The notes under the pieces were generated by a model. It ran no database searches, was not told the DNA's origin, and was given only the letters and a program-made list of their open reading frames with translations. From the NCBI RefSeq assembly GCF_028368995.1, contig NZ_JAQNDL010000003.1, positions 1,824,001-1,888,000 of the forward strand: a DNA stretch of 64,000 bases. Direction: 5' to 3'. Within the stretch, counting starts at the first letter, position 1, and each line of letters begins with the position of its first letter. Position numbers and translations under genes: made by a program. Positions 3,333 to 51,300 of the stretch are shown here, in pieces. The DNA comes from Nannocystis bainbridge. Lineage in GTDB: Bacteria; Myxococcota_A; Polyangia; Nannocystales; Nannocystaceae.

Positions 3333-6229
3333 TCCATCGCCTGCCACGCGTCGATCTGCGCCACCGGCTCGCGCATCTCGCGGGCCGCGTAGTCCGTGCG
3401 CGCCTCGCGGGCCAGCTGTCGCGCCCGCGGTGAACGACGCCCCTCGGCCGCCGCCAGCGCGCGTGCCAGCGAGAACTTCAGATCGGCGGTCTCCAGCGGC
3501 TCCGCGCCGCTCGCCAGCTGCAGCGCCAGCGCGCGCTCGAGATCGCCGATCGCCTGCCGGGGCAGCCCCTCGGCCAGCGCGACCTGACCGCGGCCCTTGA
3601 GCGGCAGCGCCAGGCTCGGATCGTCGACCGCCACCGTCGACTGGTAGATCACCAGCGCGCGCTCGAAGCTGATGCGCGCCTCGTTCATGCGACCCAGCGC
3701 GAGCTCTGATTCACCGAGGTTGCTGTGGAGGCGAGCCACCAGCGCGTGCGTCGGCCCGAGCACGCGCTCGCGGATCTGCAGCGCCGCCCGATACGCCGCG
3801 ATCGAGGCCGCGAGGTCGCGGGTGAAGAAGCACAGCACGCCGCGCGCCTCGTGCAGCTCGGCGAGCAGCTCGTGCGCCGGCCCCAGCGCGCGCACGTGGA
3901 CGGCGAGCACGGCGTCGAGCCGCGCGAGGCCGGCCGCGAACGCGCCCGCGAGCATGTCGAGCCGGACCCGCACGAACTCGATCCGCGAAAGGCTCAGCGA
4001 GTCGGCGCCGAAGGCCGCGCGCGCGATGGCCCCGGCCGCGTCGAGATGCGCGCGCGCGCTTGCGAGGTCGCCGGTGTCGATGGCGAGCAGCGCGAGGTCG
4101 AACAGGTGATCGCCGGCCGCCGGCGAATCCTCGCCCCAGCGGCCCCGCGCGGCCCCGAGGCCCGCTTCCAGCACCGCCCGCGCCTCGTCCTGGCGGCCGA
4201 GCTGGGCCAGCATCCCGGCGATGTTCAGCCCCTGCGACTCGACGCGCGCGTCGTCGCCGAGCCGCCGCGCCGCCTCGCGGACCTGCTCGTGCACCGCCAG
4301 CGCCTCCGCGAAGCGCCCGGCCTGCGCCAGCTGCCGCGCCCCGGCCACGCGCAGCGCCAGGCCCCGCGCGTCCGCCGGGCGACCGAGCCGCCGCAGCGCC
4401 GCGTCGGCCTCGTCGATGAGCCACTGCTCGAGCTCGGGCCTGGACCAGCGCCCGCTCGCCGCCTCGGCCGCCTCGACCCGCAGCGTCGCCGCGAGCTCGT
4501 CGAGCCGCCCAGCCTCCGCCTCGCGCGCGACCGCGACGAGCTGCGGGACCCCGCGCGTGGTCTGCTCGCGCAGCAGATCGAGCCGCGCCGGGAATGCCTC
4601 GAGCTCGAGCCGCAGCGGCCCATATCTCGCACCAACAGCCTCGGCCGCAAAATCATCGACGCTCGCCTGCGCCCGCGCGAGCGCCCCGGCGGCCGCCAGC
4701 GCGCCGGCCCGCGCCAGCACGTCGTAGCCGCGCAGGACCGCCTCGCGCCCCGGCTCGTCCGCCGGCATCGGCTCGATCTGCGCCAGCCGCTCCGGATCGT
4801 CGCAGTCGCTCAGCGCTGGCAAGCTCGCCAACAATGCGGGCGCCCGCCCGGCCAGCGGCTCGTCGCCGCCCGCGGCCAGCAAGGTGTCGATCACCACCTG
4901 CACGCGCCGGCGCTTGCGCTCGAGACACGCATTGCGCAGGTCCAGCGCCGTGTCGGATTGCACCCCCTCGATACGCGTCGCCACGCACGCGGCCCGCCGC
5001 GCCTCCTGCCATTCACGCGCCCACCCGTCGAAGCCCGTGATCAATGTCGACACCGTGGTCTGCGCAAAGGCCAGCGAGCTCTCTTCTAAAAAACGCCCGC
5101 GCAGCGCATTGCGGCGCGCATCGTCCCAGGTGCCCACGAGCGCCTCCGGGTCGGCCGCGCACGCCGGCGGAGGTTCGGGCGCGACCCACTGCGACGCCGC
5201 GGCCCCGGCCACCAGCGCCCCCAGAGTCGCTCCGCCCAGCGCCAGACCGAGCCGGCGCCGCGGCCCGTCGACGACGGCCTCGAGCTCGGCCAGGAAATCA
5301 CCGAGCGATCTGAAGCGCCCCCGCGGATCGGCCGCGAGCCCGCGCGACAGGGCGCGGCTGAGCCGCGGCGACACCCCCTCGATCGTCGCCCGCTCGCCCA
5401 CCGCCGGCCGCCTCCCGGCGAGTGACTCCCAGATCGCCACGCACAGCGCGTACTGATCGGCCGCCGCGTCGACCTCGCGCCCCGCGAGCTGCTCGGGCGC
5501 GGCGTAGGCCCGCGTGCCCACGAACCCGGCGCTGCGCGGCGTCGCCTCGCCGCTCGCGCTGCTCTCCTGCGTGAGAGTGGACGCGTCCGAATCGCCGTGC
5601 AGCGTGTGCACCAGCCCGAAGTCGATCAGCCGCGCCCGACCGTCGTCCCCGATCAGCACGTTGCTGGGCTTGACGTCGCGGTGCACCAGCCCGGCCGCGT
5701 GCACCGCGACCAGCCCGCGCCCCACCGCGATCCAGTGCTTCAAGATCGCCGTCGACGTGGGCCGCGGCGTGCGCGTGAGATAGTCGCGCATCGTCGTGCC
5801 AGGCACGTACTCCATGGCGATCCACACCCGCGCGTCCGTCAATCCGGCCTCGAACACCGTGATGATGTTGGGATGCGCGAGCCGGGCCAGGCTCCGCGCC
5901 TCTCGCAGCGCCCGCTCGCGCTGACTCGCAGGCACGTCGCGGGTGTCGATGAGCTTGACGGCGACAGTGCGCTCGAGCTGCGGATCGAACCCGCGATAGA
6001 CGACACCCATGCCGCCCTCGCCGATCCGCTCGCGCAGCTCGAAGCGACCGAAGCGCGGCGCCCCGGCCTGCTGCCCGAACATCGCGGTCAGCAGCCGCGC
6101 CCGCACCAGCTCGGCGTCGACGCTGTCAGGCAGCATCAGCCCGGCCGGCTCTTGATCCGCGTCCGTCATCACTCGACTAACCAGCTCCGCCGCGCTCGCT
6201 TCGCCGGGCATCGGCCCCGAGTATGTCAT
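3257..6229 (-). CDS. Ser/Thr protein kinase with C-terminal TPR repeats
   Basis: GEGGMGVV, VAVK, HRDVKPSN, DFG and GTRAYAAPEQ motifs; TM segment; kinesin-light-chain-type TPRs. Confidence 0.92.
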   Translation of the reverse strand: MTYSGPMPGEASAAELVSRVMTDADQEPAGLMLPDSVDAELVRARLLTAMFGQQAGAPRFGRFELRERIGEGGMGVVYRGFDPQLERTVAVKLIDTRDVPASQRERALREARSLARLAHPNIITVFEAGLTDARVWIAMEYVPGTTMRDYLTRTPRPTSTAILKHWIAVGRGLVAVHAAGLVHRDVKPSNVLIGDDGRARLIDFGLVHTLHGDSDASTLTQESSASGEATPRSAGFVGTRAYAAPEQLAGREVDAAADQYALCVAIWESLAGRRPAVGERATIEGVSPRLSRALSRGLAADPRGRFRSLGDFLAELEAVVDGPRRRLGLALGGATLGALVAGAAASQWVAPEPPPACAADPEALVGTWDDARRNALRGRFLEESSLAFAQTTVSTLITGFDGWAREWQEARRAACVATRIEGVQSDTALDLRNACLERKRRRVQVVIDTLLAAGGDEPLAGRAPALLASLPALSDCDDPERLAQIEPMPADEPGREAVLRGYDVLARAGALAAAGALARAQASVDDFAAEAVGARYGPLRLELEAFPARLDLLREQTTRGVPQLVAVAREAEAGRLDELAATLRVEAAEAASGRWSRPELEQWLIDEADAALRRLGRPADARGLALRVAGARQLAQAGRFAEALAVHEQVREAARRLGDDARVESQGLNIAGMLAQLGRQDEARAVLEAGLGAARGRWGEDSPAAGDHLFDLALLAIDTGDLASARAHLDAAGAIARAAFGADSLSLSRIEFVRVRLDMLAGAFAAGLARLDAVLAVHVRALGPAHELLAELHEARGVLCFFTRDLAASIAAYRAALQIRERVLGPTHALVARLHSNLGESELALGRMNEARISFERALVIYQSTVAVDDPSLALPLKGRGQVALAEGLPRQAIGDLERALALQLASGAEPLETADLKFSLARALAAAEGRRSPRARQLAREARTDYAAREMREPVAQIDAWQAMDQPPLRLIVKTGSGSESGGIDSPSR

Positions 6230-6361
6230 TTCATCACGAGCGCGACCCGCGAGTCAGCCCTCGTTCGGATCTGCGCACAGCCACGCCGGCGAGCGACACC
6301 GCGTGATAAGGTCGAACCGGGCCCCGGCGCCCGCCGCCGCTGCGCGACGACCCCGCTCTCC

Positions 6362-6949
6362 ATGCCCCGTTCGTTCCTCGAACTGATGCGCGACCTGGGC
6401 GCGCGGCTCAGCGGCCGACCCGTGCCGCAACGCTGGAAGCGAGATCGGTCGCGCGACCACCTGGACGACTACCGCATCCTCTGGCGCCTCGAGGGCGAGC
6501 CCTGCGAGGTGTACCTGTTCGGGCGCTGGGCCGGGTACAGCCATCCGGTGGTGCCTTGCGACCCACTCACCTTCGAGCGGTCCCTGCATGCCCGCTCGCT
6601 GTGCCGCGCCTACGTGCGCGAACTCGGCGGCGAGCCGCTCATGGTCCGATTCGCCTGCCATGCCGCGCACGACCGAGAGCTCGCCACACCGACCGATCGG
6701 GTGCCCGGCTGCTATGCCCTCGAGGGCTCCGACGACGATGCGCCGCGACCAGGAGCGCCGCTCGATCGGAGCGCCGCGGCGATGTCGGACCGCTTGCTCC
6801 TCGTCAAGCAGGGACCGCCCGGCGGGCCGGCGACCGCGATCTCGCGTACCCTGAATTGGGTCTATTCGTTCGAGTACGAGTACGACGGCACCGGCGCCCT
6901 GCAGGCGACCTTCGCCGTGAAGCAGAGCGGCCGCCACAAGCTCCCGTGA
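6362..6949 (+). CDS. Hypothetical protein, 195 aa
   Basis: 3' part of ORF 5597..6949 from ATG 6362 (MPRSFLELMRD...); a homologous fragment occurs at 14881. Confidence 0.65.
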   Translation: MPRSFLELMRDLGARLSGRPVPQRWKRDRSRDHLDDYRILWRLEGEPCEVYLFGRWAGYSHPVVPCDPLTFERSLHARSLCRAYVRELGGEPLMVRFACHAAHDRELATPTDRVPGCYALEGSDDDAPRPGAPLDRSAAAMSDRLLLVKQGPPGGPATAISRTLNWVYSFEYEYDGTGALQATFAVKQSGRHKLP

Positions 6950-7130
6950 GCGCGCCGCTGCCCGAGCAAGACGATCTCGGCCGTGGCCGGACGCGTACGA
7001 ATGCGACCGGTGGCCAGAGTCATCCCCTGGCGACAATCATCGCCGCGACCGGGAGCCGGGGCCGACCTGCGCGGGCGCGGAGGCCGGCATTACATGTCCA
7101 TGAGGACATGTCTCAAGAGACTGCCGCGTA

Positions 7131-8702
7131 TCAACGGCCGTACACGCACAGCTTGGCGATGAAGAAGTACTCCGGCCGCGTCTTGACCACCGCGATATAG
7201 CGGTAGGGCGTCGGGTCGTCGATCTCGGCCATGAACACGTCGCGGAACGGCCGCGGCCGCGGCCCCTGGACCGCCAGGACCACGTGACCGTGGCTCATGT
7301 CGGGGTTGTTCGAGGCCAGGATCGCGAAATTTTGCCGCGTCTCCGGCTGGTCGCCGTCCTGGCGCGTGACCAGGTCGATGCGGCCCAGGGCGCGGGCTTC
7401 GCCGAGGTCGACTTGCCAGAAGCTCGCGTTGTCGCCGCCCACGGGCGACCAGCCGCCGGACGCGATCGGGCCGCCGTCGTTGGCCTTGTTCGCCGTGTAC
7501 TCCGGGCTGTACACCGACGACGCGACCGCCGGCTTGCCCGCAGCGAGGTCGGTCGGCCGGGCGTACGCGTGCAGCTTGGCGATGAAGAAGTACTCGTCGA
7601 CGGTCTTGACCGCCCGGATATAGCGATAGGGCGTCGGGTCGAGCACCTGCAGGTTGAAGATGCCCTTGTTCGGCCCTGCCTCGCCGTCGAGGCCGCCGAG
7701 GACCACGTGGCCGTGGCTCATGTCGGGGTTGTTCGAGGCCCAGATCTGGAAGTTCCGGCGCGTCTCGGGCTGATCGCCGTCCTGCCGCGAGACCAACTGG
7801 ATCGCGTTGAGCGAGGTGGGCTGGCCGAGGTCGACCTGCCAGAACGGCCGCCTGTCCTCGCCGGTCGGCGACCACCCGCCGGAGGCGGCCGAGCCGCCGT
7901 CGTTGGCCCGCTGCGGCGGGTAGTCGGCGCTGTACTGCGACGAGCCGTAGGCGGGCTTGCCGGCGGCGACATCGATGAGCGTCGGCTTGCCCGCGTTCGT
8001 GTCGAGCTGGACGGCCGCCGGATCGCTCGGTGCCAGCACCGACCAGAAGGTCGTGAACGTCGAGAGACCCATGCTCACCAGGCCCGCGCCCGCGCCGACC
8101 AGCGCGACCACCCCGCCGGCGACCGTCGCGCCCGCGGCCAGGGACCCGGTCGCCGCCCCGGCCACGACTCCTGCGATTCCCCCGATCCCCGCCAGGACGA
8201 CGCCGCTCAGGACCACGACGCCGCCGGCGATGCCGAGGCCGAGCAACACCGCGTCCTTGTGGCTCAGCCCCTGCCGCCATTTGCGCCGCAGCGCCACCTT
8301 GCCCCGCGAATCGAGCCACAGCTCCCAGCCCGACCAGTTGATGCCCTGCGCGTTGCCCTGCGTCCCGGCCTCGACCCATGCGACCAGCTCGCCCCCGGCG
8401 TTGAAGTGATGCACGTAGTCCCACGCCGTCTCGGGCCGGGCGTAGATCTTGAATCGATGCTCGATGCGCTTGCCGTTGAACTCGGCGATCACCAGGAGGT
8501 GCTGGTCGCGGGCGTTGTCCCACGGGATCATCAGGTCCTGGTATTCGCGCTCCTCGCCGCGCGGGATCACGATCGACGTGTCGCGCTGCACCTCGTGGCC
8601 GGTCGCCTTGTCCTTGGGGCGCTGATCGAAGTCATGCAATTGAAACGTCAAGGTCCCGGTCGGGTGATCGTTGACGACATTCTCGATGAAACAAATGGCC
8701 AT
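7131..8702 (-). CDS. Protein with hydrophobic hairpin and two tandem discoidin (F5/8 type C-like) domains
   Basis: Two repeats of AAGKP..SS.YS....ANDGG...WSP....FWQVDLG...RYIR; GAGGAG RBS. Confidence 0.85.
   Translation of the reverse strand: MAICFIENVVNDHPTGTLTFQLHDFDQRPKDKATGHEVQRDTSIVIPRGEEREYQDLMIPWDNARDQHLLVIAEFNGKRIEHRFKIYARPETAWDYVHHFNAGGELVAWVEAGTQGNAQGINWSGWELWLDSRGKVALRRKWRQGLSHKDAVLLGLGIAGGVVVLSGVVLAGIGGIAGVVAGAATGSLAAGATVAGGVVALVGAGAGLVSMGLSTFTTFWSVLAPSDPAAVQLDTNAGKPTLIDVAAGKPAYGSSQYSADYPPQRANDGGSAASGGWSPTGEDRRPFWQVDLGQPTSLNAIQLVSRQDGDQPETRRNFQIWASNNPDMSHGHVVLGGLDGEAGPNKGIFNLQVLDPTPYRYIRAVKTVDEYFFIAKLHAYARPTDLAAGKPAVASSVYSPEYTANKANDGGPIASGGWSPVGGDNASFWQVDLGEARALGRIDLVTRQDGDQPETRQNFAILASNNPDMSHGHVVLAVQGPRPRPFRDVFMAEIDDPTPYRYIAVVKTRPEYFFIAKLCVYGR
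7137..7968 (-). repeat. Intragenic tandem duplication of the discoidin domain (offset 423 nt = 141 codons)
   Basis: CAGCTTGGCGATGAAGAAGTACTC at 7149 and 7572; other long identical blocks at the same offset. Confidence 0.85.
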
Positions 8703-8771
8703 GGTTGCTCCTCGCGGCCGTCAAGCTAGGAGCAGTCGTCGCGGGCGCCTATCCCTCGATCGGCGTAGGTC

Positions 8772-10232
8772 TCACCCGGTCCCGCGCGCGGATCCACGAC
8801 GCGCGGCCACGTCCGCCAGCGCCCGGGCGATGCGCGCGACCGCGTCGTCGGGGCCGAAGGTGCGGAGAAACTGCGAGGGCGAGAACGCCGGCGCGATCGT
8901 CAGCAGCGCGCGGCCGTGGTCGGCGGCGCGCTCGTGCTCGTCCATCCACCAGGCGGCGGCGATCGCCAGCACGAGCGCGAACGGATAGCGCGGCTTGATC
9001 GCCACCGCCTGCTCCGCGGCCGCCAGCGCCTCGCGGTACTCGCCGCGCACGAATTGAGCCGCCGCGAGCCCGGCGACGAAGGCCCCCGGCCCGAGCCGAC
9101 AGGCCTGACGCATGCGCAGCAGCCCCTCGTCGACCTGCCCGGTGATGAGCAGCACCTGCCCGAGCAGCGCCTGCGCCGACGCGAAGCTGGGGTTGTGACC
9201 GATCGCTCGCTGCAGCGAGACCACCGCGAGGTCGTGCTGGCCGCGCGCCTGCTGATAGCGACCGACGAGGTAGTGGCCCTCGGCCATGTGCGGCGACAAT
9301 TCGATGCACCGCTCGGCGCACGCCGCGAGCCGGTCGAGCGCCGGCGACTCCGGACCCCATTGATTCAAGATCGCGTCATAGGCGGCGAGCCCGAGCCCGT
9401 AGTGCGCCAGCACCAGCGTCGGCTCGCGCGCCAGCGCAGCCGCGAATTCGCCCTGGGCGCGGGCGTTGGCCGCCCGCTCGCGGGCCGCGTGCAGCGAAAA
9501 GGCGCGGTGCGCCAGCTCCCACGCCGGCAGGCCGACCGGCTGCGAGTCGGGCGCGAGACCGGCGTGCACGCTGGCGATCAGCAGCGGGTACGCCGCGGCG
9601 ACGATGCGCTGACAGATCTCGTCCTGCACCTCGAACAGCGCGTCGCGCGGGAAATCATAGGTTTCGGCCCACAGGCAGTGACCGTTCGCAGTATCGGCGA
9701 CGCAGGCCGTGATGCGCCAGACGGCGCCCGCCGAGCGCAGCTTGGCGTCGACGAGGAACCGCGCCCCGAGCCGCTCCCCCAGCGCCTGGGCGTCGCAGGC
9801 GAGCGCGCGACTGCCTCGAGTCGAGGCGCTGGCGATCACCGGGAACCAGCACCAGCGAGAGAACAGGACCACGAGGTCGTGGCTGATGCCGGCGGCGATG
9901 TCGGCGGCGCGTGGATCGGCGTCGAGGGCCACGAGCGGCAGCACCGCGATCGCCGGCCGCAGCAAGACGCGAGCGATCCGCTCGGTCGTCGCGCTCCACT
10001 CGAGATAGACCGTCGCTGCCTCGGTGCGATTGCTGACCTCGAGCCGGGCCAGCACCGCGGCCACGTGCGTGCGGACCGTCTCGCCCGAGATCCCGAGGAC
10101 CTGACCGATCTCGGGGTTGGTGAGCCCGCGCGCGACCAACTGCAGCACCTCGCGCTGCCGCGGCGACAGCACCACGTCGAGGCTCTGCGAGCGCTCCGGG
10201 CCGGCCCCCGTCCTGTCGCTCCGCGAGTTCAC
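8772..10232 (-). CDS. LuxR-type HTH regulator with TolB-like/TPR C-terminal region
   Basis: LSPRQREVLQLVARGLTNPEIGQVLGISGETVRTHV LuxR HTH; PAIAVLPL...LWAETYD TolB-like segment; TPRs. Confidence 0.88.
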   Translation of the reverse strand: MNSRSDRTGAGPERSQSLDVVLSPRQREVLQLVARGLTNPEIGQVLGISGETVRTHVAAVLARLEVSNRTEAATVYLEWSATTERIARVLLRPAIAVLPLVALDADPRAADIAAGISHDLVVLFSRWCWFPVIASASTRGSRALACDAQALGERLGARFLVDAKLRSAGAVWRITACVADTANGHCLWAETYDFPRDALFEVQDEICQRIVAAAYPLLIASVHAGLAPDSQPVGLPAWELAHRAFSLHAARERAANARAQGEFAAALAREPTLVLAHYGLGLAAYDAILNQWGPESPALDRLAACAERCIELSPHMAEGHYLVGRYQQARGQHDLAVVSLQRAIGHNPSFASAQALLGQVLLITGQVDEGLLRMRQACRLGPGAFVAGLAAAQFVRGEYREALAAAEQAVAIKPRYPFALVLAIAAAWWMDEHERAADHGRALLTIAPAFSPSQFLRTFGPDDAVARIARALADVAARRGSARGTG

Positions 10233-10583
10233 GACTCACAGCAGTCCGGCACCGAGGCCCTCGCCGCCGCGCCCTCGCCCCTGCCTGCGAGCGACGCACA
10301 CGACCTCCAGCTCTCGCCACCGAGCGCGAACATGCCGTCAATGTATCGCGGCCCGCCGCGGCGAGGAAACCGGCCGCGCGGTCGCCGTGACGAGGCGCGC
10401 GCCGTTTCGCCAGGCTCGCCCACGCGCGGCCCGGCGAGCTCCTGCGAGCGAATCTGGGCCGCGCCTCCACGGTCGAGGCGATGGTCACCGTCGCGCGGAA
10501 CTTGAGCGCCTTCACCAGCGCTCCAAGACAGGGGTGAGCCCGCGCGTCCGGAGGAGATCATGCATCACGGTGCACGCATCTGA

Positions 10584-10830
10584 CAGTGATACTCGGTGGA
10601 AGTGACCGGATGCTATGCGAGCGGCTCGACTTCAAGATCCTGTTCCGCGGGCCCCTCGAAGCGGCATCCATGATGAACGAGCGCACCGATCCAACGCGAA
10701 GCCGACACCGTCGCCGCCGACATGGATTACGACACGCACACCCTCGTCGAGGGCTGTCGCAAGGTCGGCCTGGCGCCGCATCTCTCCTTGAATCCGGGCC
10801 GAAGTGCGGCCACCGACAGCCGCTTCCAGA
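10584..10830 (+). pseudogene. IS5-family transposase remnant (internally deleted, frameshifted)
   Basis: SDRMLCERLDFKILFR resembles IS5 SERQLMEQLDYNLLFRW; in another frame TVAADMDYDTHTLVEGCRKVGLAPH resembles TLGADKGYD...LR...TPH. Confidence 0.7.
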
Positions 10831-10980
10831 TCGAGGCTCCGAGGACCTCGATAACAATCAGGGCACTAAACATTGTTATGGGCCGCAGATGGCGAGCATC
10901 CCGAGAGATGGAACGAACGCCGCCCGGATGGTTGCGCCCACAAACCCCCTCGGGTGATACTGCGCGAGGATGACCCGCGC

Positions 10981-12432
10981 ATGTCACAACCTTTGAGCGT
11001 CGTCGAGCTCGAGAACCTCCTCGGCCCGCACCTGCACATGGCCCAAGCGGGCCTCGCTCCGCCGCTGCTGCTCACTGATCGGTACGAGGTCCAGAAGATC
11101 GTGGGCAAGGGCGCGCGCGGCCTCGTCTGCAAAGGCCGCGACGTCCGGCTCGACCGCGACGTCGCCGTCAAGCTGTACCCTGCCGACCCGGCTCTCATCC
11201 GCGAAGTCGAGGCCGAAGCCAAGGCGCTGGCTCGCCTGCGCCACCCCAACATCATCGGCGTGTACGACGCCGGTCAGGCCGAGTTCCTGCTCGGAGAGCA
11301 CTCCGTGTCCTGCCTGCTGCTCGCCATGGAGTTCGTCGAGGGCGCCAACGCACGCGTGTGGCTGCAGCGTGCGGAGCGGCGCCCGCGAGAGATTGTCGCC
11401 CTGTTCCTCGCCGCCGGTGACGGCCTCGCCGCCGCCCATGCGGCCGCCACCGTGCACCGCGACATCAAGCCCGAGAACATCATGGTCGACGCCCACGGTG
11501 TCCCGCGCGTCGTCGATTTCGGCCTCGCCCGGGCAGCATCCGCCAGCCCTAGCGCGCCTGCCGGCCCCGGCCATACCCAATTCGGAACGATTACGGGCAC
11601 CCTCGAGTACATGGCTCCCGAGGCCCGTAGCGGCCTCGCCGACGAGAATAGCGATCAGTTCTCGTTCGCCGTCGCTCTGTGGGAGGCCCTGACCGGTCGC
11701 CTCCCCTACGATCCCCACCGCGGCGAATGGCGCCTCGCCGACAGCCCCGACTTCCACGGCGCCGAGCTGCTGCCCCGCCGGCTGGCGGCCCCGTTGCGCC
11801 GCGCCCTCAGCCACAGCGCCGGCAAGCGGCACCGCGACCTCGCCGCTCTGCTCGACGCCCTCCGACGGGCCCAGGCCCGCCGCATCACCTGGCTGGTGTG
11901 GAGCGCCGCCGCGACGGTCGCCGTGCTCGTAGTGATCTGGCAGGCGAGCCCCGCGAGCGCCGACCCCGAGCCCGCACGTCCGCCCACCACCACCGTTGCC
12001 AGCATCGACCCGCCCGCTCCTGTCCCCACCTCCGCCCCGGTCCCCGCCGTCGCGCGCGAGGCCTTCCTCGCCTACCTCGCCACCATCCGCGCCTATAACC
12101 GCCACGACGCGGACGCCTACTTCTCCGGTTTCCTCTCGCCGATGGACTGCTTCTACAGCGTCGCCGGAGCCTACGTCCGCGCTCGTCGTAAGAAGCTCGC
12201 CGGCTACATCGAGGTCAGCGAGTCCGACCTCGAGCTCATCTCGACCGACGGCGCCGGCACCGTGACCTTCTGCGAGCGCGGCCAGTTCGACTACGAGAGC
12301 GGCCGCGGCCGGGTCCGCCACGGCAAGGCGATCGTGATGCGCAAGGTCGACGGTGCCTGGAAGATCGCGGTCGAAACCACCCGCAAGCACACCGAGTGCT
12401 TCGTGTCCCCGTGCGCTCCGCGCGACGGCTGA
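10981..12432 (+). CDS. Membrane Ser/Thr protein kinase with C-terminal NTF2/SnoaL-like domain
   Basis: GKGARGLV, VAVK, HRDIKPEN, DFG, GTLEYMAPE; TM ITWLVWSAAATVAVLVVIW; C-terminal AYNRHDADAY...MRKVDGAWKI. Confidence 0.88.
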   Translation: MSQPLSVVELENLLGPHLHMAQAGLAPPLLLTDRYEVQKIVGKGARGLVCKGRDVRLDRDVAVKLYPADPALIREVEAEAKALARLRHPNIIGVYDAGQAEFLLGEHSVSCLLLAMEFVEGANARVWLQRAERRPREIVALFLAAGDGLAAAHAAATVHRDIKPENIMVDAHGVPRVVDFGLARAASASPSAPAGPGHTQFGTITGTLEYMAPEARSGLADENSDQFSFAVALWEALTGRLPYDPHRGEWRLADSPDFHGAELLPRRLAAPLRRALSHSAGKRHRDLAALLDALRRAQARRITWLVWSAAATVAVLVVIWQASPASADPEPARPPTTTVASIDPPAPVPTSAPVPAVAREAFLAYLATIRAYNRHDADAYFSGFLSPMDCFYSVAGAYVRARRKKLAGYIEVSESDLELISTDGAGTVTFCERGQFDYESGRGRVRHGKAIVMRKVDGAWKIAVETTRKHTECFVSPCAPRDG

Positions 12433-12530
12433 AACCCTCGCGGACAGCGTTCATTCGGCTTTTTTTGCGATCCGTGAGCCGTTCGCCGCCGGTTTTCCCA
12501 CTATGGCGGACAGGAAGGCAAGCGAAGCCG

Positions 12531-13070
12531 ATGACCACCACCTCGACCATGACTCTGCACGCCCGCGTCGCCCGCGACCATTGGGCCCGGCTCAAGAGCT
12601 ACTTCCGTAGCAAGGTCCCCGAGCCCGACTGCTACGACCTCGTCCAGCAGACCCTCGCCGAGCTCGTGAATTGCGACCTCGCGGCCGTCCGGAACATGAA
12701 AGCGTACGTCATGCGCGTGGCCCACAACGTGCTCATCGCTTACATCAACGAGCACAAGGCCAAGATGGTCGCTTTCGACAGCGATGTGCACAGCGTGATG
12801 AGCCCGCAGACCTCATTCAGCGCCCGCCTCGACAAGCGCAACCGCATCCTCAACGCCCTGCGCTCGCTCCCCCTCGCCCAGCAGGAGGCCGTCGAGCTGC
12901 GCCTGTGCGTGGGCCTCGAGCTGACCGAGATCGCCGAGGTGATGGAGCGCGGCCTCGCCACCGTCAAGCGCTACATCGAGGCTGGCACCGAGGAGCTGCG
13001 CACGTCGCTGCGTGGCATCGTGCCCGGTGACCCCGCCGACGCCGTCGCTGACGCCTACCGCGCCAGCTAG
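12531..13070 (+). CDS. ECF-type RNA polymerase sigma factor
   Basis: Region 2 (YDLVQQT...AYVMRVAHN) and region 4 (LRSLPLAQQEAVELR...LTEIAEVMERGLATVK). Confidence 0.85.
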   Translation: MTTTSTMTLHARVARDHWARLKSYFRSKVPEPDCYDLVQQTLAELVNCDLAAVRNMKAYVMRVAHNVLIAYINEHKAKMVAFDSDVHSVMSPQTSFSARLDKRNRILNALRSLPLAQQEAVELRLCVGLELTEIAEVMERGLATVKRYIEAGTEELRTSLRGIVPGDPADAVADAYRAS

Positions 13071-13188
13071 TCAGCCTGGGCCGCACGTGCGCGGCCCCCC
13101 TCCATAGCAACAACCACCATCACATCGCTCCGTCCGACGCTCCTGTCGGACGAGCGCTGGCACAGCCATGAAAAGGAGCCGCCCCGCC

Positions 13189-14022
13189 ATGCCCATCGAG
13201 GGACCGATCAGCGTCAACTATCACCTGTACAAACCATGCAACTACCACTGTCAGTTCTGCTTCGCGACTTTCACCGACATCGAGGGCTCTCTGGATATCG
13301 CGGCGCAGCACCGTCTGCTGCGTCGTCTGCGTGAAGCCGGGTGCGAGAAGATCAACTTCGCCGGCGGCGAGCCGACCCTCTACCGCGGCCTCGGCGAGCT
13401 CCTGCACGCCGCCCGCGACCTCGGCTTCGTCACCGCCATCATCACAAATGGCGCCCGCCTCGCCGCATTATTGGACTCTCACAGCGACGACATCGACTGG
13501 GTCGGCCTCTCGATCGACTCCGCCGTCGAGGGGGTCCAGGCCAGCCTCGGCCGCGGCCGCGGCGACCACGTGGCCACCAGCCGCCGGCTCGCCCTCGCCG
13601 TCCACGACGCCGGCATCAAGCTCAAGCTCAACACCGTCGTCACCGCGCGCACCTGGCAGGAGGATATGCGCCCGCTGATCCGCGACCTCCGGCCGCATCG
13701 CTGGAAGGTGTTCCAGGTCCTGCCCGTCGGCGGCCAGAACGACAACAAGGTCGATTCTCTTCTGATCTCTCCCGCCCAGTTCGCCAGCTTCGTCGCGCGC
13801 CATACCGACCTGCCCGCGCGGCTCGCTCCCGTCGTCGAGGACAACGCGGCCATGACCGGCAGCTACGCGATGATCGACCCGCTCGGCCGCTTCTTCAGCA
13901 ACGTCGCCGGCCACCACACCTACAGCCGCCCAATCCTCGACGTCGGCGTAGCGACCGCCCTCCAGGAGTCACGTTTCATGCCACATCGCCTCATCCGTCG
14001 CGGGGGGGTATACTCATGGTAA
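13189..14022 (+). CDS. pVip: Prokaryotic viperin (antiviral radical SAM protein)
   Basis: SVNYHLYKPCNYHCQFCF (CxxxCxxC), KINFAGGEP, IITNG, GLSIDS, KLNTVV, RWKVFQVL, SYAMIDPLGRF match viperin/RSAD2 motifs; AAGGAG RBS 10 nt upstream. Confidence 0.93.
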   Translation: MPIEGPISVNYHLYKPCNYHCQFCFATFTDIEGSLDIAAQHRLLRRLREAGCEKINFAGGEPTLYRGLGELLHAARDLGFVTAIITNGARLAALLDSHSDDIDWVGLSIDSAVEGVQASLGRGRGDHVATSRRLALAVHDAGIKLKLNTVVTARTWQEDMRPLIRDLRPHRWKVFQVLPVGGQNDNKVDSLLISPAQFASFVARHTDLPARLAPVVEDNAAMTGSYAMIDPLGRFFSNVAGHHTYSRPILDVGVATALQESRFMPHRLIRRGGVYSW

Positions 14023-14588
14023 GCGCGACCCGAAACCCGCTCTACCTGTGCCTTTGCGGCCTGTCCGGTGCCGGCAAGGATACCGTCGGCGACCACCTCG
14101 AGCGCGCCCACGGCTTTCACCGCGTCGCCATCGCCGATCCGCTCAAGCGCCACGTCCAACAGCTGTTCGACCTCAGCGAGGATCAGTTGTGGGGCGAGCA
14201 GCGCAACACCCCGCACGCCCGCCTCGGCCGGACCCCGCGTGAGCTCTACCAGCTGTTCGGCGACATGTGCCGCGGCCTCGACCCCGAGATCTGGATCCGG
14301 CTGTGGTGCGACGCCGTGCGCACCGCCCTCGCCGGCGGTCACAGCGTCATCTGTACCGACCTGCGCACGCTGCCCGAGCTGCAGGCCGCGCGGGCCCGGG
14401 GCGCCCGCGTCTGGCGGGTCCTCCGGCCCGGCGCCGGCGCACCCGGCCGCGCCGGCGAGCACCCCACCGAACGCGCCCTCGCCGAGCTCGCCGACGACCA
14501 GTTCGACCGCTGCATCCGCAACGACGGCGACCTCGGTCACCTCCACCGTACCATCGCGTCGGCCCTCGCCGCCGAGGAGCTCACGTGA
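14016..14588 (+). CDS. (Deoxy)nucleoside monophosphate kinase, phage dNMP-kinase-like
   Basis: GLSGAGKDT P-loop, ADPLK, PRELYQLFG, TDLR, HPTE, IRNDG; overlaps viperin stop. Confidence 0.85.
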   Translation: MVSATRNPLYLCLCGLSGAGKDTVGDHLERAHGFHRVAIADPLKRHVQQLFDLSEDQLWGEQRNTPHARLGRTPRELYQLFGDMCRGLDPEIWIRLWCDAVRTALAGGHSVICTDLRTLPELQAARARGARVWRVLRPGAGAPGRAGEHPTERALAELADDQFDRCIRNDGDLGHLHRTIASALAAEELT

Positions 14589-14866
14589 CCCGCCTTGCCG
14601 ACACGGACCCCATCTCGCTCGCCAGCCTACCGCACCGCGGCATGGTGCAGCGAGCCCGCGATATCCTGCACCGAATCGCAGCGGGCGAGCCCTACGTCCG
14701 CTTCCATGGCAAGCGCCTACGCCACGACCGGACCCGCATCAGCGTCCCGCTCGGCCGGCACTACCGGCTTATCTTCCTCGACGACGGCGCCCGCCTGCGT
14801 CCGATCGCCTGCATGTCTCACTCCGCCTACAACGGCACGAAACCCGGCGCCCGCCGCCACTCCTGA
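14585..14866 (+). CDS. Small basic RelE/ParE-like protein, 93 aa
   Basis: GTGA overlap with kinase stop; GKRL...ISVPLGRHYRLIF...MSHSAYN resembles RelE/ParE-fold toxins. Confidence 0.65.
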   Translation: MTRLADTDPISLASLPHRGMVQRARDILHRIAAGEPYVRFHGKRLRHDRTRISVPLGRHYRLIFLDDGARLRPIACMSHSAYNGTKPGARRHS

Positions 14867-14880
14867 TCGCTAGCGACTCG

Positions 14881-14965
14881 ATGCCGGACCGCCTGCTCCT
14901 CGTCAAGCAAGGATATCCCGGCGGGCCGCCGACATCGATCCCGCACGAGCTGAAATGGGCATACT
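14881..14965 (+). pseudogene. Fragment paralogous to the C-terminus of CDS 6362..6949
   Basis: MPDRLLLVKQGYPGGPPTSI vs MSDRLLLVKQGPPGGPATAI at 6782, also similar at DNA level. Confidence 0.7.
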
Positions 14966-15463
14966 GGTGCACCGCGTCCTCAGGCGCCAGGTTGATCGGC
15001 CGCTTGTTGAGCACGCAGCCGTCGTTCGTCGAGGCCATGCCTGCTTTCATCCCTGGATCGGCACATTCAATATAGCGTTTGATGGACCTTCCCGATTCGC
15101 AGGGACGGCCCGTGGAATAATGTGCCAGCTCAATCGCCGAGTGCGCCCAGCGAACACCGGCGCACTCATCGTCCGCGCTCGGGAGCGTACCCGCTCGTGT
15201 CATCGCAGGGCCGACGGGGGTTCCGATCGGCGGCGAACACATACATGGCACGACGGCAGAGCCGCGTCGGGTTCTCTTGACATACAGTCGCGTCTGGTGG
15301 ACAAGTGACTCCGATGATCGGAGGGCCGACGTTGCTATGATGCGGGCGCTGGACGCACCTGCCTCATGGCGTGGGAGGCTCTGCCGAATATGAGTTCGGG
15401 GATTCGTCGCCAGGCGCCCCCGCAGCGAGAGCTCGCAGTCACGCCCGCGCAAGGGAGGACCAG

Positions 15464-16639
15464 GTGCTGAGTCACGAGAAGATGTTCCAGGCCTCCGCGG
15501 GGCTTCTGGCCGCCGTGGACACGAACGGCCACTTCCGCGCCCTGAACCCGACATGGGAGCGGATCCTCGGCTGGTCCCTCGACGAGCTGAAGAGCAGGCC
15601 GTTCATCGAGTTCGTCCATCCGAGCGACCGCGAGATCACCCTCGCCGAGGTGGCCCGCCTCCTCCAGGGCGACACGGTCGAGCGGTTCGACAACCGCTAC
15701 CTGTGCAAGGACGGCTCGTACAGGTGGCTCGCCTGGACCGCGCGGGTGGACACCGGCGACGAGCCGTCGGAGCAGCTCATTTATGCGTCGGCGATCGACG
15801 TGACGAGCGACCGCGAGCGGCCGTCGCAGCTCGATCCCACGCTGCAGGACGCCAAGGTCTACGAGAAGCTGTTCCGGGTCTCGGTGGGCCTCCTCGTCAC
15901 CCTGAACTCGAACGGGTACTTCCTCCACGCCAACCCGGCGTGGGGCCGGCTCCTCGGCTGGAGCCCCGACGAGATGACCGCCAAGCCGTTCATCGAGTTC
16001 GTCCACCCCGACGACCGCGAGGCGACCGCCGCCGAGGCCGCAGCCCTGTTCGAGGGCAAGATGACGATTCGCTTCGACAACCGCTATCAGTGCAAGGACG
16101 GCACATACAAGTGGCTCGCCTGGACCGCCTACCTGGATCCGAACGAGGACGAAGCGACCCGGCTCGTCTACGGCACGGCCCATGACGTCACCCCGTACAA
16201 GGAGCTGCTCGGCGAGTTCGAGCGCACGCTCGCACGGCTCCGCGACACGATGGAGGCGATGTCGACGCCGTTCATCCCGATCACCGAGCGGATCGTGGTC
16301 ATGCCGCTCGTGGGCCAGATGGACACCGACCGAATCCACCAGGTGATGACCGTCGCGCTCGAAGGCGTCCAGTCGACCCACGCTCAGGTGGTCATCCTCG
16401 ATGTGACGGGCCTGCGCGACCTCGACACCCTCGTCGCGCGCGCGCTGCTCGACACCGCCAAGGCGCTGCAACTGCTCGGTACAAAGACGATCCTTACCGG
16501 AATCCGACCCTCCCTGGCGCAGACGCTCGTCGGTCTCGGGCTCGACCTGGGTAGCATCATTACCAAGGGGACCCTCCAGAGCGCGATCGCGTCGGCGCTG
16601 AAGAATGAAGTGAGCTCGGGCAAGCCCAAGCCCTTCTGA
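15464..16639 (+). CDS. PAS-PAS-STAS protein (RsbR-like)
   Basis: Two near-identical PAS repeats (offset 387 nt; PFIEFVHP.DRE..., RFDNRY.CKDG.Y.WLAW) plus STAS (MSTPFIPI...ILDVTG...TGIRP); GGAGG RBS before GTG 15464. Confidence 0.9.
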   Translation: MLSHEKMFQASAGLLAAVDTNGHFRALNPTWERILGWSLDELKSRPFIEFVHPSDREITLAEVARLLQGDTVERFDNRYLCKDGSYRWLAWTARVDTGDEPSEQLIYASAIDVTSDRERPSQLDPTLQDAKVYEKLFRVSVGLLVTLNSNGYFLHANPAWGRLLGWSPDEMTAKPFIEFVHPDDREATAAEAAALFEGKMTIRFDNRYQCKDGTYKWLAWTAYLDPNEDEATRLVYGTAHDVTPYKELLGEFERTLARLRDTMEAMSTPFIPITERIVVMPLVGQMDTDRIHQVMTVALEGVQSTHAQVVILDVTGLRDLDTLVARALLDTAKALQLLGTKTILTGIRPSLAQTLVGLGLDLGSIITKGTLQSAIASALKNEVSSGKPKPF

Positions 16640-16983: not shown

Positions 16984-17364
16984 CTAGCTCTCAAGCGCCT
17001 TAAGCGCACGCGAGGTAGCGCCGCGGCGGTCGATGTACCGGCTCGCGGTCCCGAGGTCCTTGTGCCGGAGGTGGGTGGCGACGGCCGCTACGCCGCCACC
17101 ACCATCGGCGATCCGGGTGCCGCAGGTCTTGCGGAGGACACGGGTGCCGCGCCAGGGCAGACCGGCCAGCTTCACCAGGGCCATCATCCACGCATTCATG
17201 TTGTGCTCCTTGAAATGACTCCCCTTGTTGTCGAAGACGAAGGGGCCCGTCCGCGGGTGCGTCTCGAGAGCTTGGGCCAGGCGCTTCGTGATGCCGATGT
17301 TGTCCTCAGTCCTGCCCTTCGGGGCATCGAGCTTGCCCCGGACGACATTGTGGCGGATGACCAT
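16984..17364 (-). pseudogene. Tyrosine recombinase/integrase, C-terminal fragment only
   Basis: DAPKG (catalytic K), TRVLRKT (HxLR box), HLRH, TASRY (catalytic Y); in-frame stop ~50 nt upstream, so no N-terminal half. Confidence 0.8.
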
Positions 17365-48384: not shown

Positions 48385-51300
48385 GCGTCGTCCTCTTCGT
48401 CCTGCTTGGCCTTGCGGGCGCGTGCGACGGTCTTCTTGGGAGGCTTGGGGGGCGGGAAACGCTTGCGCCAGTCCTCGAGCATCTCGCGGCTCGGGCCAGT
48501 CGGACCGACGAGGGCCTGCAGTTCGGCTTTCAAGCGGGCGGCTGCCTGGCCGTCTTCGCGGGCGACCTCGGGGAGCAGACGCCAGGCGCTGTCGAGCAGG
48601 GCGATGCGGTCGGCGAGGGATACACCGGCATCCTCACGATCCTCGTCGATAGCGAGGATGGCCTTGAGGCGCTGCAGCGGGGTCCAGCCGGCCCAGCCGT
48701 AGAGAGTTCCGGCATCAGTGGAGCCATGGACTTCGGTGAACGCGATGTATCGTTCGCGTGGCACGTCGAGCTTGCCGCGAAGCTCAAAGATCCGACGCGT
48801 GTTGAAATCTGGCTGGGCGTAGGTCGGGGGGACCGCGGGTGTCACCCTTTCGCCCGCGTCTTCACGGCGTTGATCCTCCCAGGTCTGCTCCCAGGCTTGA
48901 TGCTTTACGAGACCTGACTTGCTGTATCGATGGAACGGATGGTTAGGCACTGCATCATCTGTAAGCAACTCCAAAACAAGTCGATCGTGACTATAATCGC
49001 AACGTGCCGTCATGAGTTCAGCAAGCATCGAGAAGCGGGGCTCCTCTTGCAGGTCCGCGGCGATACGCCCGAGATCGAAAGGAACGTTCCGCTTGCGAGC
49101 TGCAAATTCGACCAGATCGCTCAGCAAGAGGCGGAGTCGGTCACCGAGGCGATCAGCGAAGGTCTCGACCCTTCCGGCCAGATGTTTCGGAGTCAACAGC
49201 CATCGCCGCTTATAGCTCTCATGTTCAATCAACGCGAGCGCTGGCGAGCGCTCGACGGCAAGCATCCTCTCTGTCCAGACTTTGGCGATACGCTCGTCTA
49301 GATCCGAAGGTAAATCTTTCATGAGCAACTGCCCGTCGACCCCATACGCCCTTCCTGACCGAGCTTGAAGGACTTCGAACGGACGAGCCCCGAGGGGCGC
49401 CCCCGAAGTCCGTTCAATGTGATCCGGAGAAATCCTCGGAAGGTTCTCGACGAGACCATATAGATGGTACACGGACCAGTCGATCTCCTCCTGCAGGACA
49501 ATCTGCTGACGCAAAATCTGACTCTCGCGCGATTCTGCCTCCTCAAGGAGGGCCCGAATTTCATGGCTCGGAAAGGGTTCAAGAGTTCGAATGTCAGGAA
49601 GTGCAGCAATCAGCACGCCAGCGCGCTCGGCTGCGAGTTTGTCCAACCGCCGAGCACATTCTAGCAATACTTCTCGACAAGGCCCCACATCCGGGAAAGG
49701 GAACTCCTGAAGACCGGTTACCGTAAAGTCGTAGGCAATCTTCGCGGCATCAGACTGCCATTTTCCTGCGGACGTTCCGCCCCCCTTGTTGTGGAAGACC
49801 TGCTTCATCCAGAAGCAACCCGCAGACGAATTCAGCACGCCAAGCGCCGAATAATACTCGGCCTCCGTCGCAGCGCGAGGGAGCTTTATCACCGGCGCGC
49901 TTCGATTAAATGCCTTGCCGCCACGATCGAGGATAAAGTGATTATGAGTCGCAATGAAAGCAAATGCGATAGCCAGGGGGGTCCGGAAGCGCTCCTTCGT
50001 TATTTGGCCGTGATCCCACCACGGGCGCCCTGCAGTTCGGAAAGTGTCGCCTCCGAAGACCGCCCTCTCTTCGAGTAGCCTGCGAAAGCGCCAAAGGAAT
50101 CGTTCCACGCCAGTATTTTCAGGCAATGGCCGAAGCTCAAGGTCATCGTTATACGGAAAAATAACCGCAGGACCGCCAATGATGGTCCAATCCCGCAGCA
50201 TATCTCCGTTTCCGAATAGCTTAAGCCAACTCGAATCACACCCGTGCCGCTCAAAGGTCGAAAACTCTTGGACAAACACTTCATCCTGCTTAGTAATGCA
50301 CATGTAACCGATGGACTCAACCTGATCAGCAAGGCGCCCGAGCGAACGGCTTTCAATTCGAACTTTTAGCTCAGCCGCGCCTCCTCCGCCAAGGCTCCAA
50401 GGATGCTTCGAGAGTGTTGCACGCGGCACAGCAGACACGCTCACAAAGTCATTTTCGAATCCGACTCGACACCATCCCTCCTCAATGGAGGACCACACCA
50501 ACGCCTTCGCTGGCTCCGCAGGAATCCCGCTCTCGCCGCGCTTGCTCATGACAACGCGTACGTCTTCACCGAAAGCGCGACTATTTCTAGCGAAGAGCAA
50601 CACGGTCGGGGTGCCGTGGCCGGGGATAAATGCCTGCGAAGTATCGACGACAAGCGTCAGGTCGAGGTTGCTCAGGATCTTCTCAATGAGCGGCTCACCG
50701 AACTCCCGTTTCATGAAATTATTACTGGTTATGATCCCGACGAATCCCTCTTTTTCGGCGAGTTGAAAGGAGCGCTCAGTGAACGGCGAACCCAGCGAAT
50801 ACTCCCGGTAGGCTGAAACGTAGCGCTGTGCCTTTCCAATTTTCTCGCGGTGATACGCCTTGCTCGCCGGGTCTCGCTCGGTGATGTAGGGCGGGTTCGC
50901 CACTACGGCATGGAATTTCGCCGTCAGCACCGGGCGGAGGGCAGCGCGCACATCGGCGCGCGTAAACGTCGGGCGCGGCTTCTCTGCGGACTTTGCGCTC
51001 TCGAAGAGGCCGAATTGCTCGCTCGGCTTGCTCTCATCGCGTTCGACTTGCTCGAGCCCGTCGGCCCAGTATACGTGGGGATGGAACTTCGCGGCGTCAG
51101 CGAGCGCCGTCACGCCCGCGAGTTCGGCGGCGGTCATCACGAGGCGAGCGCGTGCGAGAGCGCAGGCGTAGTCGTTGAGGTCCATGCCGACCACGCGGCC
51201 GAGGGCATGGAGGGCGAGTTGCTCGCGCGACCAGTCCTTGTGCTGCACCGCGGTGGCCTCGAAGATGCGCTTGAGGCCGTCGATCAAAAAGTGTCCGGAG

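Follow-up and report, generated by a model that had tools for sequence, protein, structure and literature searches.

The 64,000-nucleotide (nt) stretch of Nannocystis bainbridge DNA analysed here, hereafter the window (assembly GCF_028368995.1, contig NZ_JAQNDL010000003.1, positions 1,824,001-1,888,000, forward strand), carries three overlapping genes that encode a prokaryotic viperin (pVip), a nucleotide kinase related to phage T4 gp1 and a small protein, referred to below as gene 3, that is predicted to adopt the fold of RelE/ParE toxins:

13189-14022, plus strand: pVip, a radical S-adenosylmethionine enzyme of 277 amino acids (aa) with a CNYHCQFC motif (NF038283, PADLOC, Radical_SAM)
14016-14588, plus strand: T4 gp1/DNMK-type nucleotide monophosphate kinase of 190 aa with the P-loop GLSGAGKDT (PF21448, phrog_139, 1DEK)
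14585-14866, plus strand: gene 3, a RelE/ParE-fold protein of 93 aa with a ParE_like domain (PF24732) and without DUF7682

The initial annotation had described a three-gene operon joined by overlapping stop and start codons, and both its coordinates and its two overlaps are exact in the sequence: the kinase ATG overlaps the pVip TAA in ATGGTAA, and the gene 3 GTG overlaps the kinase TGA in GTGA. The pVip ATG at 13189 is preceded by AAGGAG 9 nt before it, and the same start is used in a more distant, metagenomic relative of the locus (L093, described below). A promoter and terminator scan of 12300-15500 returned no promoter-like site and a single terminator-like site, located on the minus strand inside the pVip gene and scoring at shuffle level. 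Scans of the window for tRNA genes and Rfam families gave no match, and therefore no clue to an attachment site. In a search of sequencing runs for the locus, no RNA run was listed, and the best DNA run contained 0.41 of the sampled words.

Viperin and its kinase partner

Judged by family model, the first gene encodes a true prokaryotic viperin. It scores 277.3 bits against a cut-off of 180 with NF038283, the NCBIfam antiviral-viperin equivalog, and also matches the PADLOC pVip model PDLC02904 (3.5e-84) and Radical_SAM (1.9e-16). Its CxxxCxxC cluster motif spans residues 17-24, and all 29 aligned pVips share C17, C21 and C24. For comparison, 401 genomes were drawn evenly from the phylum of the window, 39 of which carry a viperin above cut-off; the loci of the 30 best matches were compared, that is, 29 besides the window's own.

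The second gene had been annotated as resembling T4 gp1-type deoxynucleoside monophosphate (dNMP) kinases, and this assignment is upheld by Pfam DNMK (PF21448; 50.3 bits against a cut-off of 27.1), by PHROG 139 'deoxynucleoside monophosphate kinase' (5.9e-39 over residues 7-184) and by the solved structures, among which T4 Dnmk (1DEK) alone matches (1.6e-5). The kinase is not of the CMPK2/thymidylate-kinase type: it has no Thymidylate_kin match in Pfam, and none of the PADLOC families matches it. Across 28 relatives, its P-loop and several Arg/Asp positions show no variation, and G15, G20 and K21 are among the invariant residues. The P-loop and C-terminal half align with T4 gp1, with which it shares hidden Markov model (HMM) family membership; unlike T4 gp1, which acts on dNMPs, it is host-encoded, about 50 residues shorter and part of a pVip-dedicated clade, with a substrate that is predicted only.

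A DNMK-type kinase directly follows the viperin in 7 of the 29 other pVip loci, and in six of these seven it is fused to the viperin C terminus in a single open reading frame (ORF) of 471-596 aa that combines Radical_SAM and DNMK. Conversely, when the 401 genomes were searched with the kinase profile, 10 of them had a match at E <= 1e-8; the eight strongest matches (E <= 3e-55, the window's own included) all lie beside or are fused with a viperin, and two weaker ones (1e-35 and 1e-37; L141 and L142) have no viperin link. This linkage, seen in eight of ten kinase-bearing genomes and seven of 29 viperin loci, identifies the phage-type kinase as a dedicated and recurrent viperin partner, and within the phylum, members of this DNMK clade nearly always adjoin a pVip or are fused with one. 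Such a partner is thus less unusual than the initial annotation had supposed, being recurrent and often fused in the phylum sample.

Bernheim and colleagues reportedly described prokaryotic viperins with associated nucleotide kinases in 2021. That pVips are sometimes linked to nucleotide kinases also has a published precedent in the available text of the preprint by Shomar et al. (10.1101/2023.09.13.557418), which places a kinase near 12 % of bacterial viperins. As in these pVip/VakA systems, a true pVip lies here beside a same-strand P-loop nucleotide kinase that presumably supplies substrate for 3'-deoxy-3',4'-didehydro-nucleoside triphosphate (ddhNTP) synthesis, and kinase fusions exist in both; theirs are of the CMPK2/thymidylate-kinase type, whereas the kinase described here is of the DNMK/T4 gp1 type. 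The fusions differ as well, with about 180 positions N-terminal to the viperin in the PADLOC fusion model and the kinase C-terminal in the DNMK fusions.

Thymidylate-kinase-type partners fused to or following other pVips of the phylum were also observed (L116:814-2349, L118:862-2322 and L105:878-1468, all on the minus strand). These three partners are matched by PADLOC VakA and PDC-M51B, and the DNMK portions of the fusions in L097 and L106 are not, so that two kinase families partner pVips within one phylum. The kinase-less pVips closest to that of the window (55-61 % identity; L117, L119 and L121) are followed by an ORF of 88-98 aa, often with a stop/start overlap (L117:2310-2576, L119:2310-2606 and L121:1223-1489, the last on the minus strand), which tblastn also finds at L110 and L120. 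This ORF has a weak likeness to DUF2325 (33.0 bits against a cut-off of 33.6) and, from its recurrence in these sequences, appears to be another small viperin partner.

Gene 3 and other RelE-superfamily partners

Gene 3 matches the Pfam ParE_like family (PF24732) with 81.4 bits (4.9e-23) against a cut-off of 24.4. We built an AlphaFold2 model from a 41-sequence alignment (mean predicted local distance difference test score, pLDDT, 84.8) and compared it with the PDB using Foldseek, in which the top matches were all RelE/ParE-superfamily toxins, with weak E-values (best 2.3e-2) and probabilities of 0.98-1.0. Re-alignment of the Foldseek candidates with VIA gave a Z score of 9.1 to M. jannaschii RelE (3bpq; root-mean-square deviation 2.4 A over 78 residues), 8.3 to YafQ, 8.1 to HigB, 7.8 to YoeB and 6.8 to ParE2, in each case for residues 8-87; 49 of the 50 listed structural matches were RelE/ParE-superfamily toxins or domains. 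A sequence search of the PDB with the gene 3 family profile returned no match at E up to 10. Taken together, the PF24732 match and the structural Z of 9.1 to RelE bear out, for a predicted model, the RelE/ParE fold put forward in the initial annotation.

Among 41 members of the gene 3 family, conservation is 90 % or more at K43, R44, R49, R61, H79, Y82 and N83, all of which are invariant in the six proteins of the pVip-associated clade; S53 and P55 are also family-conserved, and R61 is invariant. Catalysis in RelE, YafQ and YoeB relies on a central-strand Arg together with a His/Tyr pair close to the C terminus, to which R61, H79 and Y82 may correspond. Gene 3 resembles the type II RelE/ParE toxins of the BECR fold (RelE, YafQ, HigB, YoeB, ParE) in its fold (Z 6-9), small size and conserved basic, His and Tyr residues, but differs from them in having no cognate antitoxin gene and no sequence-level match to solved members.

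An HMMER search of 1.84 billion representative proteins identified 201 relatives of gene 3 at E <= 1e-3 and 35 at E <= 1e-10. About half of the tabulated relatives (74 of 159) carry an N-terminal CGH...CHxC zinc knuckle (DUF7682, PF24730), and the DUF7682 + ParE_like pair was confirmed in Microcystis, Enhygromyxa and a Burkholderia plasmid. Gene 3 shares the ParE_like domain of these proteins (46-58 % identity to the 126-aa Microcystis and Crocosphaera forms and to those of Enhygromyxa) but not their zinc-binding domain, which is also absent from its eight nearest relatives; gene 3 opens at a DPISL motif. A longer gene 3 start was considered and rejected: the frame is open back to 14267, but the extension overlaps the kinase gene and is rich in Arg and Pro, and the relatives start at the ATGA overlap. 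The frame upstream of the gene 3 start is the kinase gene read out of frame and holds no zinc motif, and a PF24730 search of the window's own genome gave no match, although it was a weak search in which the control was matchless too. In a quick tree built from 159 rows over 89 columns, in which most forks are open, gene 3 falls in a nine-row zinc-less clade (SH-aLRT 92); presence of the zinc domain changes at least seven times over this tree, which does not show derivation from the Enhygromyxa copies. Gene 3 is a single-domain derivative of a family in which the DUF7682 + ParE_like architecture is the usual one. We found no literature on either the DUF7682/PF24730 or the ParE_like PF24732 family.

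Several weak PF24732 matches (24-30 bits) were also seen in the phylum loci L005-L011, inside open frames of 500-930 aa that are either real multidomain proteins or high-GC artefacts. A distant PF24732 member of 87 aa from the same class (L002:1180-1710) is preceded by an 86-aa ORF in an antitoxin-typical position, which indicates that part of the Pfam family may still consist of classical toxin-antitoxin pairs.

Conservation of gene 3 beside viperins was assessed by a pattern scan of 185,579 species genomes, which yielded 139 stretches, 95 of them encoding relatives; the best 80 of these 95 were kept. With up to 6 kb examined on each side, a viperin or DNMK kinase lies near the homologue in one of the 80 best loci, that of Nannocystis sp. 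RBIL2 (L013), where the trio has the same gene order and overlapping junctions, with aa identities of 92, 92 and 92 % (gene 3 92-94 %). A metagenome scan returned two further gene 3 relatives, one (L093) with the whole trio at 82, 78 and 78 % aa identity and the other cut off by a contig end. L013 and L093 both retain the 4-nt overlap of kinase and gene 3, in the form ATGA. Pairwise dN/dS among the window, L013 and L093 is 0.20-0.23 for gene 3, equal to that of the viperin (0.19-0.23), and 0.24-0.41 for the kinase. The database search further suggests that three close gene 3 relatives (P0005, P0007 and P0008, the last being the L093 protein) share contigs with kinase relatives (P0163, P0167 and P0166, respectively). 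Around the other 29 pVips of the phylum, neither tblastn nor a six-frame search with the family HMM detected a gene 3 relative within 1.5 kb, and the 91-aa ORF that follows an Acinetobacter plasmid pVip is not PF24732.

The trio is conserved as a unit, translationally coupled and under purifying selection, which is more than chance. These observations establish gene 3 as a genuine operon member under selection, although this holds only for a Nannocystis-like clade. Conservation next to pVips, which the initial annotation had set beforehand as its refuting test, is therefore borne out in L013 and L093 and fails in 79 of the 80 homologue loci and at all 29 other pVip loci.

No antitoxin gene lies beside gene 3: upstream are the kinase and pVip genes, conservation of the block extends only 3 nt past the stop of gene 3, and the downstream ORFs at 14955-15308 and 14769-15554 match no Pfam family. 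The lack of an antitoxin that the initial annotation had pointed out thus stands for both the conserved block and the adjoining ORFs. The remaining homologues among the best 80 are mostly cyanobacterial, and in five of five such loci inspected the gene stands alone. The same is true of three inspected Enhygromyxa loci, whose chromosomal neighbourhood is ordinary, and neither set shows a conserved small partner. The inspected DUF7682 + ParE_like forms, unlike gene 3, thus have no defence context, and their ordinary surroundings speak against a strongly toxic role for the family. In three of the five cyanobacterial loci (L020, L036 and L052, at about 5870-7500), among them an endosymbiont of the diatom Epithemia with a reduced genome, the 126-aa DUF7682 + ParE_like gene is followed by an ORF that by eye resembles a cysteine desulfurase (MQIYLDYSATTPP...), a neighbour that hints at a housekeeping context for this family.

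A second type of RelE-superfamily partner emerged when 109 ORFs around the 29 other phylum viperins were scanned against Pfam. In L097, the viperin-DNMK fusion is preceded by a DUF4258 (PF14076) gene whose stop overlaps the fusion's start; a homologue of this gene (44 % identity) occupies the same place in L098; and in L106 a single 596-aa ORF comprises Radical_SAM, DNMK and DUF4258 (36.7 bits against a cut-off of 25). DUF4258 therefore accompanies three of the seven other DNMK-type pVip loci. As far as the available text of Gerdes (mBio 2025) goes, PF14076 is listed among the BECR-fold families of the RelE/ParE superfamily, with function unknown. A model of the L097 DUF4258 domain, built from three sequences only (pLDDT 73.6) and searched unfiltered against 48,161 chains, has BECR-fold toxins at ranks 2-31 (RelE, ParE, BrnT, colicins D and E5, CdiA-CT and Cami1), at modest Z scores (4.0-5.7) that are not decisive alone. 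Profile comparison of the PF24732 and DUF4258 families detected no similarity, which points to independent recruitments, and no antitoxin gene is shown at the DUF4258-bearing loci or in the Nannocystis-type cassette. The viperin-DNMK unit is thus paired with RelE-fold modules of independent origin, in three of seven other loci and in the Nannocystis-type cassette.

A RelE-like gene beside a pVip, which the initial annotation had considered unusual, is already in print: in the part of Gerdes (mBio 2024, PMC10865869) available to us, RelE and HicA genes beside pVips are proposed to enhance defence, and sheet 16 of its Table S1 gives 15 pVip-linked RelEs, in pairs of two genes from Marinomonas, Vibrio, Aliivibrio and Marinobacterium. 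As far as these parts of the source go, both settings place a small RelE-fold gene without an antitoxin next to a pVip (here in the same operon, with the kinase between), but the published pairs are gammaproteobacterial and have no kinase, whereas a DNMK kinase intervenes in the Myxococcota operon. By eye only, gene 3 and the RelE sequences given there share YRL(V/L)V and (S/T)H..(F/Y)(D/N) motifs.

Upstream genes and surroundings

Two genes on the same strand precede the operon:

10873-12432, plus strand: Hanks-type Ser/Thr protein kinase with a C-terminal non-kinase region, a 519-aa ORF (Pfam Pkinase 1.7e-33)
12531-13070, plus strand: sigma-70 factor of the extracytoplasmic function (ECF) type (Sigma70_r4_2 1.5e-8, Sigma70_ECF 5.6e-5)

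The sigma factor also matches TIGR02937 (43.4 bits against a cut-off of 42.9); its start is uncertain, the ORF opening at GTG 12396 and the probable start being ATG 12531. PADLOC PD-T4-6 models match the Ser/Thr kinase at up to 1.2e-55, which reflects generic kinase-domain similarity. In L093, a full-length Ser/Thr kinase (82 % aa identity) and then a sigma factor (72 %) directly precede the trio in the same order; L013 has only the C-terminal part of the Ser/Thr kinase, together with the sigma factor (90 %). A blastn comparison of the window with L013 aligns only 11828-13071 and 13067-14869, so that homology stops 3 nt past the gene 3 stop, and about 1.2 kb of L013 DNA with no alignment to the window separates its sigma gene from its pVip gene. 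From the synteny of the window, L013 and L093, the conserved unit comprises five genes, namely the Ser/Thr kinase, sigma factor, pVip, nucleotide kinase and gene 3, and the flanks of this block differ in all three. Control of the pVip operon by the Ser/Thr kinase and sigma factor is suggested by this synteny only.

Between the sigma stop and the pVip start, two short inverted repeats (13078-13097 and 13131-13150) are both kept in L013, as seen in sequence and alignment only. Two other pVips are directly preceded by proteins with a sigma-70 region 4 domain (L106:32-961 and L107:105-1358), neither of which is related to the sigma factor of the window. In L013, a 1595-aa protein with HIT, PLD-like, ResIII/helicase and S24 peptidase domains (6371-11158, minus strand) converges on the end of the trio and, by its domains, resembles genes of defence islands; elsewhere in the sample, pVips adjoin BrxL, a CHAT protease and a restriction-type nuclease. 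A Pfam scan of the neighbours found no defence gene adjacent to the operon in the window. About 2 kb downstream of the operon, a minus-strand 126-aa ORF (16984-17364) matches only the C-terminal part of a phage-integrase family (6.8e-7) and is probably an integrase remnant. The G+C content of the window is about 0.69 apart from 38001-40000 and 49001-51000, where it falls to 0.56-0.57.

Proposed function and alternatives

We favour, with a probability of about one half, the reading that this is a kinase-associated pVip antiviral operon with gene 3 as an integral accessory gene, most likely encoding a conditional RNase. By what is known of viperins, the pVip would convert one or more nucleoside triphosphates into ddhNTP chain terminators, and the kinase would phosphorylate nucleoside monophosphates and sustain the substrate supply, by analogy with CMPK2. 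More tentatively, gene 3 would not be the toxin of a classical toxin-antitoxin pair and may instead be a conditionally active RNase of the RelE/YafQ kind, adding a block on translation or RNA to the block that ddhNTPs would impose on transcription; the Ser/Thr kinase and sigma factor may govern expression. The second defence layer and the substrate supply for a non-canonical ddh-nucleotide that the initial annotation had proposed are likewise putative roles. We take gene 3 to be integral because it is conserved, coupled to the kinase gene and under selection, keeps the basic, His and Tyr residues, has a parallel in the recruitment, even by fusion, of another RelE-fold domain, and comes with no antitoxin. 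The closest model for such a protein is Cami1, the cA4-activated, ribosome-dependent RelE-like RNase ancillary to CRISPR (8phj/8phb), which is likewise an antitoxin-less RelE-fold immune effector; gene 3 differs in having no known sensor domain or signalling nucleotide, and its structural Z to Cami1 is only 6.0.

Several points weigh against this reading. The activities of all three proteins are inferred from sequence and model, and the equation of R61, H79 and Y82 with the catalytic residues of RelE, YafQ and YoeB is putative, being based on general knowledge of these enzymes and not on a residue-level alignment. The link between PF24732 and pVip is confined to a narrow clade (one of 80 homologue loci plus L093, and none of the 29 other pVip loci), and the ordinary chromosomal setting of the two-domain relatives, diatom endosymbionts included, leaves room for a non-catalytic role. 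The DUF4258 genes of L097 and L098 lie upstream of the viperin, not downstream; four of the seven other DNMK-type loci have no such domain within the DNA scanned; and a search for further viperin-kinase-DUF4258 fusions, by a word-indexed method of limited reach, returned the query alone. As for the upstream pair, no homologue of the window's Ser/Thr kinase or sigma factor was found at other pVip loci, and in L013 the Ser/Thr kinase is truncated and unaligned DNA intervenes between the sigma and pVip genes.

The main rival, which we regard as possible though doubtful, makes gene 3 a non-toxic regulatory or adaptor subunit, that is, an RNA- or ribosome-binding RelE-fold module that would sense infection or position the viperin-kinase pair. 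The fusion of viperin, kinase and RelE-superfamily domain in one genome suits a subunit better than a free poison, and both the lack of an antitoxin gene in the conserved block and the standalone two-domain forms of the five cyanobacterial loci, one a reduced diatom-endosymbiont genome, are consistent with an adaptor; yet the basic, His and Tyr positions, which are typical of catalytic RelE-type RNases, are strongly conserved, the best structural matches are active mRNases, and the binding role is putative. Predictions of a three-chain complex of pVip, kinase and gene 3 scored 0.33, 0.01 and 0.00 in separate runs and count neither for nor against binding.

Mere hitch-hiking is unlikely: in this reading, gene 3 would be an orphan toxin, or what is left of a toxin-antitoxin pair, carried along as the last gene of a mobile defence cassette and functionally unconnected to the viperin. 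Such an origin would fit the 79 homologue loci that have no pVip and the 29 other pVip loci that have no gene 3, the homologues found among hypothetical genes on conjugative and mobilizable plasmids, and the differing flanks of the block. The coupling of gene 3 to the kinase gene, whose overlap persists in three lineages at aa identities as low as about 78 %, its selection at a dN/dS equal to that of pVip, and the independent recruitment of an unrelated RelE-superfamily domain to the same viperin-kinase type disfavour hitch-hiking, and the three further gene 3 relatives that apparently share contigs with kinase relatives also speak against it.

Still less probable is a sigma-controlled small-molecule pathway unrelated to phage defence, in which the operon would make a ddh- or deoxy-type nucleoside, with the DNMK kinase indicating deoxynucleotide substrates and gene 3 serving in self-protection or RNA processing. 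In favour of such a pathway, characterised members of the kinase family, such as T4 gp1, use dNMPs as substrates, the Ser/Thr kinase and sigma factor upstream form a dedicated pair, and the window has no adjacent defence gene; against this, the viperin scores well above the antiviral-viperin equivalog cut-off, the L013 block abuts the 1595-aa protein of a type common in defence islands, and other pVips of the sample have defence-type neighbours. A substrate chain in which a RelE-like RNase degrades RNA to feed the kinase and, through it, the viperin would account for the order of the genes and for three coupled activities that all concern nucleotides or RNA, but is highly improbable, RelE-type enzymes being endonucleases that leave cleaved mRNA and not 5'-mononucleotides, whose release has no support here.

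Viperin-kinase linkage and RelE or HicA genes beside viperins are already known. In a limited literature search we found no paper tying viperin to a DNMK-type kinase or describing the DNMK clade as a viperin partner with C-terminal fusions, and likewise none on recurrent RelE-fold partners of DNMK-type viperins (the triple fusion included), on an origin of gene 3 in the DUF7682 + ParE_like family, or on the conserved Ser/Thr kinase and sigma factor pair. A further reading, offered speculatively, is that DNMK-type viperins form an undescribed three-part class, composed of viperin, T4 gp1-like kinase and an antitoxin-less BECR module, that couples RNA cleavage or ribosome sensing to ddh-nucleotide synthesis and, in the Nannocystis-type cassette, is switched on by an ECF sigma factor that the Ser/Thr kinase would control. 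If so, it would constitute an inducible, two-armed response acting on transcription and translation, resembling interferon-induced viperin/CMPK2 beside RNase L; as a bolder corollary, the dNMP-type kinase would mark deoxynucleotide substrates and the product would be a DNA chain terminator. The vertebrate pair of viperin (RSAD2) and CMPK2 is similarly a linked viperin-kinase pair under inducible control, which for the Nannocystis operon is suggested by the kinase-sigma pair, but its kinase belongs to another family and we know of no RelE-like partner for it.

Viperin is one of the few antiviral enzymes common to bacteria and humans, and its bacterial accessory genes are barely studied. The present analysis ties to it a phage-type kinase clade that is often fused to viperin and unmodelled in PADLOC 2.0. 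The presence of antitoxin-less RelE-fold partners in two unrelated forms turns the adjacency of pVip and RelE into a testable hypothesis of an integral RNA-targeting or RNA-sensing subunit, and the many cyanobacterial members of the DUF7682 + ParE_like family raise the question of how a RelE-fold protein is tolerated with no antidote. The Ser/Thr kinase and ECF sigma pair could control the expression of a bacterial viperin, and the layout of the trio, which recurs in another form in related bacteria, suggests an accessory arm of viperin defence.

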